From Escherichia coli (GTDB lineage: Bacteria > Pseudomonadota > Gammaproteobacteria > Enterobacterales > Enterobacteriaceae), in assembly GCF_003334335.1 (NCBI RefSeq), contig NZ_QOWQ01000109.1: a stretch of 1,340 nt of DNA; one strand, 5' to 3'. Positions 1 through 1,340 of the stretch are shown here, in pieces. The notes under the pieces are model-generated. The model had not been told where the DNA came from and ran no database searches. It saw nothing but the letters and a program-made list of their open reading frames with translations. Made by a program: the position numbers and the translations under genes. Every line of letters starts with the position of its first letter. The first letter of the stretch is position 1.

Positions 1-1
1 C

Positions 2-24
2 CATAAGCGCTAACTTAAGGGTTG
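2..24. repeat. Terminal inverted repeat, transposase-distal end (IRR), 23 bp
   Basis: Bases 2-24 are an exact reverse complement of 1318-1340. The match breaks immediately inward (gaacca on this side versus gtggta on the other). Confidence 0.9.
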
Positions 25-172
25 AACCATCTGAAGAATGCGACGCCTCGGTGCCTCGTTAAGACGATGCCTCGCGTTCTTCAATTGCGTTTTGTAGGCT
101 GTCAGGGATACTGTCCCACGAATGGCCACCTGTAAGCTCCAGATGACCATTTTTGTTATTCTCCACAACGAG

Positions 173-1285
173 TTAGTTCTTCTTTTCGGATCCGGCACTT
201 CTGGGGGGGAAATCCAGCGATGGCTGGATTATGTCGTCAATTAAAAATGCGGCGAGTAGATTAGCAAATATCCACGCTTTCGCGAGTTCAGGTTCCTTTG
301 CACGCAAAGCATCCAGGTGCAGCAAACTTTTGAGCCGCTTAAAAGCCAGTTCAATTTGCCATCGCAGACGGTAACAATCAGCCACTTGCTCTGCTGAATA
401 TTCATCTTCCGGTAATGATGTTAGCAATAGCACATGGCCCGCTGCTTCCAGCGTTTCCGCCTGAACTACTCGTCCTTTTCGACGATTCTCGCTGAGCAGT
501 CGGGTTTTACTGATTAATGCTTTTTCGGGAGGAAGTGATACGGCAATGAGACGTGCCGGAAAGGGAGCTCCGGCTTTTTTATTACCTGAATTGCCTATCA
601 TTACAGTGGTTTCACCGTTCTTACCGCAATCCAGCCCGCGCAGAAAACCCATCATGTCAAAGCGCATTCCTTCTGCAGTTAACCAGCGCAATCCTCGCCA
701 GTGAACCCGGACGATATAATCAGCTTCTCCAAAAGCAAGTGAGCGGATACATTCGGGACGCGAACCGAATCCCCGGTCAGCAATGCGTATCTCGTCTGCC
801 GTTTGCGCAAATCGGTCCAGCCGTTCAGCGTCTCTGCTGTCGGTTAGCTCAAAATCAGTGAACTGACAGGTATGAGGATCATATCCCATATGTAGTCGCC
901 ATTCAGCGCTGCCGCCCCCGGGCGCACTGATTGCTGTTCCATCGACAAGACGCAATCTCTTTCCGCTTGTACAACCCGTAACTGCGGCGCGTACAGCAAG
1001 TGTTTGTGCGGCAAGTATGCCAAACCAGTCGGCGGCATTCCGCAGCCGCTTCAGGAGAGCCACGTCAGATAATGTTGCAACGTCATGGAGCTGAGCCCAT
1101 GCAGTGACTTCACGTAATGACATCCCCCCGGGGCCGTAAGCCAGCCCCAGACGTAGCAGAGTTGCAGCATCACGAATTTCGCGGCGGCGGGTTAGAGCCC
1201 CGGCATTACGTGCCGAAGTATCCAGTTCTTCGGGCTTACCAATATGGGCCAGAATTGCTGACCAGTTATCGTGAGAGTAATTCAT
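173..1285 (-). CDS. insL: IS186 transposase InsL, IS4-family DDE transposase, 370 aa
   Basis: Continuous minus-strand ORF with TAA stop at 173-175. The track starts it at a GTG (1289-1291); I prefer the in-frame ATG at 1283-1285, which gives MNYSHDNW... and 370 aa. IS4-family motifs are present: VDGT (D codon 941-943), ADRGF (D codon 776-778), and YRLRWQIELAFKRLK (E codon 350-352). The ORF fills the space between the two terminal repeats. Confidence 0.93.
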   Translation of the reverse strand: MNYSHDNWSAILAHIGKPEELDTSARNAGALTRRREIRDAATLLRLGLAYGPGGMSLREVTAWAQLHDVATLSDVALLKRLRNAADWFGILAAQTLAVRAAVTGCTSGKRLRLVDGTAISAPGGGSAEWRLHMGYDPHTCQFTDFELTDSRDAERLDRFAQTADEIRIADRGFGSRPECIRSLAFGEADYIVRVHWRGLRWLTAEGMRFDMMGFLRGLDCGKNGETTVMIGNSGNKKAGAPFPARLIAVSLPPEKALISKTRLLSENRRKGRVVQAETLEAAGHVLLLTSLPEDEYSAEQVADCYRLRWQIELAFKRLKSLLHLDALRAKEPELAKAWIFANLLAAFLIDDIIQPSLDFPPRSAGSEKKN

Positions 1286-1296
1286 CGGCACGTTAA

Positions 1297-1327
1297 ATCA
1301 TATCAGGCGTAATACCACAACCCTTAA
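1297..1327 (-). promoter_or_regulatory. Candidate transposase promoter: extended -10 (TGaTATGAT) with weak -35 overlapping the terminal repeat
   Basis: On the minus strand, TATGAT (1302..1297) is immediately preceded by TGa (1305..1303), an extended -10 pattern about 11 bp upstream of the ATG. The only -35-like hexamers (TTAAGG at 1327..1322, AAGGGT at 1325..1320) are poor and lie inside the terminal repeat. No clear Shine-Dalgarno precedes the ATG. Prediction by eye only. Confidence 0.3.
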
Positions 1328-1340
1328 GTTAGCGCTTATG
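1318..1340. repeat. Terminal inverted repeat, transposase-proximal end (IRL), 23 bp
   Basis: Reverse complement of 1318-1340 is CATAAGCGCTAACTTAAGGGTTG, identical to 2-24. It lies 32 bp upstream of the transposase ATG on the minus strand. Confidence 0.9.

Follow-up and report, generated by a model that had tools for sequence, protein, structure and literature searches.

A complete, apparently functional copy of the insertion sequence IS186 in a 1,340-nucleotide stretch of Escherichia coli DNA

The stretch of Escherichia coli DNA analysed here (1,340 nucleotides in full, hereafter the window) carries one transposase gene read on the minus strand, with a short leader upstream and a longer non-coding tail downstream, the whole being enclosed by two inverted repeats (Table 1). 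The only long open reading frame (ORF) of the window extends over 173-1291 on the minus strand and would encode 372 amino acids from a GTG codon; the annotated ATG lies two codons downstream and delimits a gene of 370 codons. The two 23-bp arms stand at the termini and are by far the longest inverted repeat of the window. The initial annotation had described them as perfect, and they are indeed complementary at every position. It had also taken the whole window as element, which holds for positions 2-1340 but is wrong by one base, the repeat starting at position 2.

Table 1. Features of the window, with positions counted from its first nucleotide.
Feature	Position	Strand	Basis or remark
Flanking base C, outside the element	1-1		Beyond the perfect inverted repeat; C at 13 of 13 different genomic loci
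Terminal inverted repeat, transposase-distal, CATAAGCGCTAACTTAAGGGTTG	2-24		23 nt, 100% complementary to 1318-1340
Non-coding tail, 148 nt, from the insL stop codon to the inverted repeat, with stem-loops 25-91 and 121-151	25-172	-	Folding
insL, IS186 (IS186/IS421) DDE transposase, 370 aa	173-1285	-	ORF, family profiles, motifs, DNA identical to insL1, insL2 and insL3
Leader, 32 nt, from the inverted repeat to the insL ATG	1286-1317	-	In-frame GTG at 1291-1289
Terminal inverted repeat, transposase-proximal	1318-1340		Perfect partner of 2-24

Regarding the gene product, it matches the NCBIfam model NF033592 ("IS4 family transposase") with 133.2 bits, above the curated cut-off of 115 bits, and the Pfam domain PF01609 (DDE_Tnp_1) with an E-value of 3.7e-26 over model positions 2 to 200 of 200. 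The hallmarks of IS4-family transposases are the YREK signature and the absence of a frameshift (PMC2266710). Both are found here: the signature Y-(2)-R-(3)-E-(6)-K lies in region C1 as YRLRWQIELAFKRLK (residues 305-319, with Y305, R308, E312 and K319), and the gene is a single uninterrupted ORF. One long ORF together with an IS4 model above its cut-off bears out the earlier view of a single intact IS4-family transposase. From motif position and pattern, the DDE triad is predicted to consist of D115 (in LVDGT), D170 (in IADRGF) and E312. Among PDB chains, phmmer returned nothing significant for the protein (best E = 0.27), and a consensus scan of the window for terminators returned two terminator-like sites, both inside the gene and at the rate expected by chance.

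The identity of the element was settled by direct comparison. Positions 2-1340 of the window were aligned base by base with the three elements annotated IS186A, IS186B and IS186C (genes insL1, insL2 and insL3) in the E. coli K-12 MG1655 record NC_000913.3, and 0 mismatches were found over 1339 bp in each case. Moreover, the annotated insL coding sequence maps exactly to the minus-strand gene of the window, and the product is therefore InsL. In a megablast search of 5426 complete E. coli genomes, 100% identity over 1-1340 was obtained in many records, K-12 MG1655 included. The initial annotation had recognized IS186 with its InsL transposase and anticipated near-identity to the three K-12 copies; the comparison returned full identity with coinciding coordinates of the coding sequence, the best match was not another IS4 member with a different repeat, and its identification is thereby supported. 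We take positions 2-1340 of the window to be a complete and apparently functional IS186 (also labelled IS421), an element of E. coli and related Enterobacterales, with a probability of about 0.98. It shares with the K-12 element all 1339 bases, the 23-bp inverted repeats and the 370-aa InsL, as well as the target and duplication pattern, the latter as seen at other copies and not at the window's own. It differs from it in the drawn boundaries only: the repeat ends enclose 1339 bp, while the window has 1340 bp and the feature of NC_000913.3 has 1345 bp. The element is thus already known and holds no novelty, and the outcome is a negative result only, allowing the window to be removed from lists of candidate novel systems. 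Knowledge of IS186 goes back to the 1980s. Measurements of both its target preference and its rate of transposition have been published (PMC5009759).

The two names in use deserve a comment. The identical protein WP_001300563.1 is labelled "IS4-like element IS421 family transposase" by PGAP in most records, and fragments are labelled "IS186B family", so that one might read the window as IS421, a separate IS4-family element distinct from IS186. However, the same DNA is annotated, with zero mismatches, as IS186A, IS186B and IS186C in the K-12 reference, where the gene product is named "IS186/IS421 transposase", and the joint designation IS186/IS421 is found in papers too, which makes a separate element very improbable. 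As judged from these sequences and their annotations, IS186 and IS421 designate one and the same element or near-identical isoforms, and the difference is one of label only. The practical point is that automated annotation applies both names to one sequence.

Within the IS4 family, IS186 probably belongs to the IS231 subgroup, an assignment based on its end consensus, its duplication length and its YREK/DDE features together with its presumed placement in ISfinder. For IS231 members, De Palmenaer et al. (2008) give ends of the form CAT-------AA--TAA--- (their Table 1), direct repeats of 10-12 bp and a size of 1450-5400 bp, while IS186 is not named in the main text of that article (PMC2266710). 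The IS186 end CATAAGCGCTAACTTAAGGG fits every fixed position of this consensus, the single unframeshifted DDE transposase with its YREK signature agrees with the subgroup, and the IS186 duplications of 10-11 bp fall inside the 10-12 range. Weak tblastn matches to Bacillus IS231F-type transposases (about 24% identity, E = 3e-9) point in the same direction. With 1339 bp, IS186 differs from the subgroup in lying below 1450-5400 bp, this size range being descriptive and not a strict criterion.

A closer relative was found on a Rhizobium leguminosarum plasmid (NZ_CP121639.1; locus L021, 420-1772, 1353 bp), and the IS186 lineage therefore extends to Alphaproteobacteria. This element encodes a 370-aa transposase that is 42% identical to InsL and shares with it the DGT, ADR and YRxRWQIELAFKRxK motifs; its ends are related to those of IS186 (CATATGCGCTAGG in Rhizobium and CATAAGCGCTAAC in IS186), a duplication of 11 bp flanks it, and its gene is followed by some 170 nt of non-coding tail. 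It differs in that the duplication, AGCGTGACCCT, is without GG/CC bounds, the GGGG/CCCC target not being seen at this one copy, and in that no significant fold is predicted for its tail. IS10 and IS50 are studied members of the IS4 family which transpose by cut-and-paste through hairpin intermediates. Their transposases, those of Tn10 and Tn5, have the DDE/YREK catalytic architecture in common with InsL, whereas these elements make 9-bp duplications, have other end sequences and other target preferences, and are too distant from InsL for phmmer detection among PDB chains.

These comparisons bear on the exact limits of the element. The 13 different loci surveyed all contain the 1339-bp sequence without change, and their flanks agree as well, CC preceding CATAAG at one end and GG following CTTATG at the other. 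With a G/C palindrome as target, the invariant CC and GG of these 13 loci are compatible with an origin in the element or in the target. A true terminus at CAT, with a duplication of 10-11 bp, is favoured for three reasons: the Rhizobium relative has a CAT end and an 11-bp duplication without G/C bounds, the duplications of IS4-family elements are generally about 10 bp long (PMC2266710), and the end consensus of the IS231 subgroup starts with CAT (PMC2266710). With a CAT terminus, the left duplication ends on base 1 of the window and the element measures 1339 bp, not 1340. In NC_000913.3, the mobile-element features IS186A, IS186B and IS186C are 1345 bp long and overrun the inverted repeats by 3 bases on each side (locus L003, 201-1545), and the annotated boundaries therefore take in part of the target duplication. 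Published and annotated boundaries of IS186 disagree over a few bases, a consequence of the G/C-rich palindrome that serves as target.

The window itself has one flanking base only, so that the duplication of its own copy is not visible and no single genomic site can be assigned to it; the insertion history was therefore read from the 13 loci. The published target of IS186 is 5'-GGGG(N6/N7)CCCC-3' (PMC5009759). At 11 of the 13 loci, the element is bordered by a direct repeat GG(N6/7)CC of 10 or 11 bp within a target GGGG(N6/7)CCCC, in agreement with the duplication length of the IS4 family (about 10 bp). At the other two (L007 and L012), no target duplication is present and the flanks are halves of different GGGG...CCCC sites, which indicates that these loci were rearranged when two IS186 copies recombined. 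One site within the reverse-transcriptase gene of a group II intron has received the element in both orientations (L008 and L011), and a plasmid site, GAGGGGGGCAACCCCCCTC, located downstream of a plasmid-borne hok, has received it in three registers (L010, L014 and L015) with duplications of 10, 10 and 11 bp, respectively. The site used in both orientations and the one used in three registers are independent insertions into hot spots.

A coherent course of transposition can be drawn from these data. The identity with the reference, the intact gene with its motifs, the identical copies at different sites, their duplications and the target motif were all observed; the cut-and-paste chemistry and the catalytic roles are carried over from the family (IS10, IS50 and IS231A). 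InsL would bind both 23-bp terminal inverted repeats and, by analogy with these elements, excise IS186 from the donor DNA through DDE-catalysed cut-and-paste involving D115, D170 and E312. Insertion would then take place at GC-rich GGGG(N6/7)CCCC sites, the target being presumably cut with a stagger of 10-11 bp, and gap repair would generate the direct duplication GG(N6/7)CC.

IS186 is widespread. By megablast, 8692 places were counted in 2221 of the 5426 complete E. coli genomes. The median per genome is 3 places and the maximum 22, and 2147 of the 5426 contain a place with at least 80% query coverage; in 2725 of 2815 E. coli records, the best place has at least 99% identity. The element is also present in 1004 plasmid records, mostly of conjugative plasmids, from hosts including Escherichia, Salmonella, Klebsiella, Shigella, Enterobacter and Citrobacter among others. 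A decayed relative with 96-98% identity occurs on F- and I-type plasmids (L017, 601-1798; L018, 601-1816; L020, 446-1643): it has no counterpart of window positions 1-141, the distal repeat included, its remaining inverted repeat is altered by one substitution, and its version at L017 is frameshifted. On a Salmonella plasmid, another copy (L019, 446-1786) has a 1-bp insertion that alters the C-terminus of the transposase, the annotated ORF being of 376 aa.

The existence of such truncated and frameshifted relatives, together with a consensus scan of the whole window that found no recognisable sigma-70-like promoter, might suggest that the window copy is likewise a dead, immobile relic. This reading is exceedingly improbable, given that in the window copy the 370-aa ORF is uninterrupted, the inverted repeats are perfect and no family motif is missing, and that identical copies stand at many different sites with fresh duplications. 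Published data on K-12 in effect already show that this sequence transposes.

The non-coding tail raises the question of functions beyond the one of an apparently functional insertion sequence. On the transposase-sense strand, the fold of positions 1-175 reaches -55.7 kcal/mol (z -3.1 against shuffled sequence). The hairpin at 121-151 has a folding energy of -17.3 kcal/mol (z -4.9) on this strand versus -8.4 kcal/mol (z -1.2) on the other; its 12-bp stem is stable on the sense strand only, because two of its pairs are G-U there and become C-A mismatches on the opposite strand. The stem-loop at 25-91 is an imperfect palindrome and folds about equally on both strands. To our knowledge, no function has been described for either stem-loop. 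We regard it as unlikely that the tail (25-172) contains an undescribed functional RNA or DNA structure. If it did, the hairpin at 121-151 could stabilise the insL mRNA at its 3' end or be a site of its processing, and the palindrome at 25-91, as a subterminal site of binding or termination, could protect the element against transcription reading in from outside. The IS186 copies, being at least 99% similar, are too alike for covariation, and relatives with 60-90% identity, sought in order to follow the conservation of the tail hairpins, were absent among the matches listed; the candidates retrieved proved to be the near-identical Salmonella plasmid copy (L019) and the truncated relative (L020).

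More broadly, a second function besides transposition could be housed in an antisense ORF or in a structured RNA of the 148-nt tail. A 102-aa ORF (553-861, plus strand) runs antisense to insL, the tail has a better fold than shuffled sequence, and strand specificity is seen in one of its hairpins. On the other side, none of the six secondary ORFs (52-102 aa) matched PHROGs or NCBIfam, an Rfam search of the window (E <= 1) gave no match in the tail or elsewhere, and the tail of the 42%-identical Rhizobium relative has no significant fold (z -0.19), so that such a function appears quite unlikely. ARAGORN detected neither tRNA nor tmRNA in the window, Tandem Repeats Finder returned no CRISPR-like array but one weak two-copy 23-nt repeat inside insL, and no cargo gene was found in the window. 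The ORF, Rfam, tRNA and tandem-repeat scans are thus in line with the initial annotation, which had reported no cargo genes, no supported additional ORF, no RNA genes and no CRISPR repeats.

Finally, the surroundings of the IS186 copies offer some additional observations. Many of the targets form longer palindromes, rich in G/C and with a T-run behind them, and thus resemble the hairpins of intrinsic terminators (L001, 2975-3001 and 4341-4365; flanks of L003, L006, L010 and L016), an example being CCGGGGAATTATCCCCGG, which lies where the genes pdeA and nupC converge. Several targets lie directly downstream of hok toxin genes, namely hokC and hokE in K-12, the plasmid hok and a chromosomal hok beside cas3. 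In strain EA13, the IS186B copy beside hokE and entD is itself interrupted by IS1A (L002, 2001-4117).
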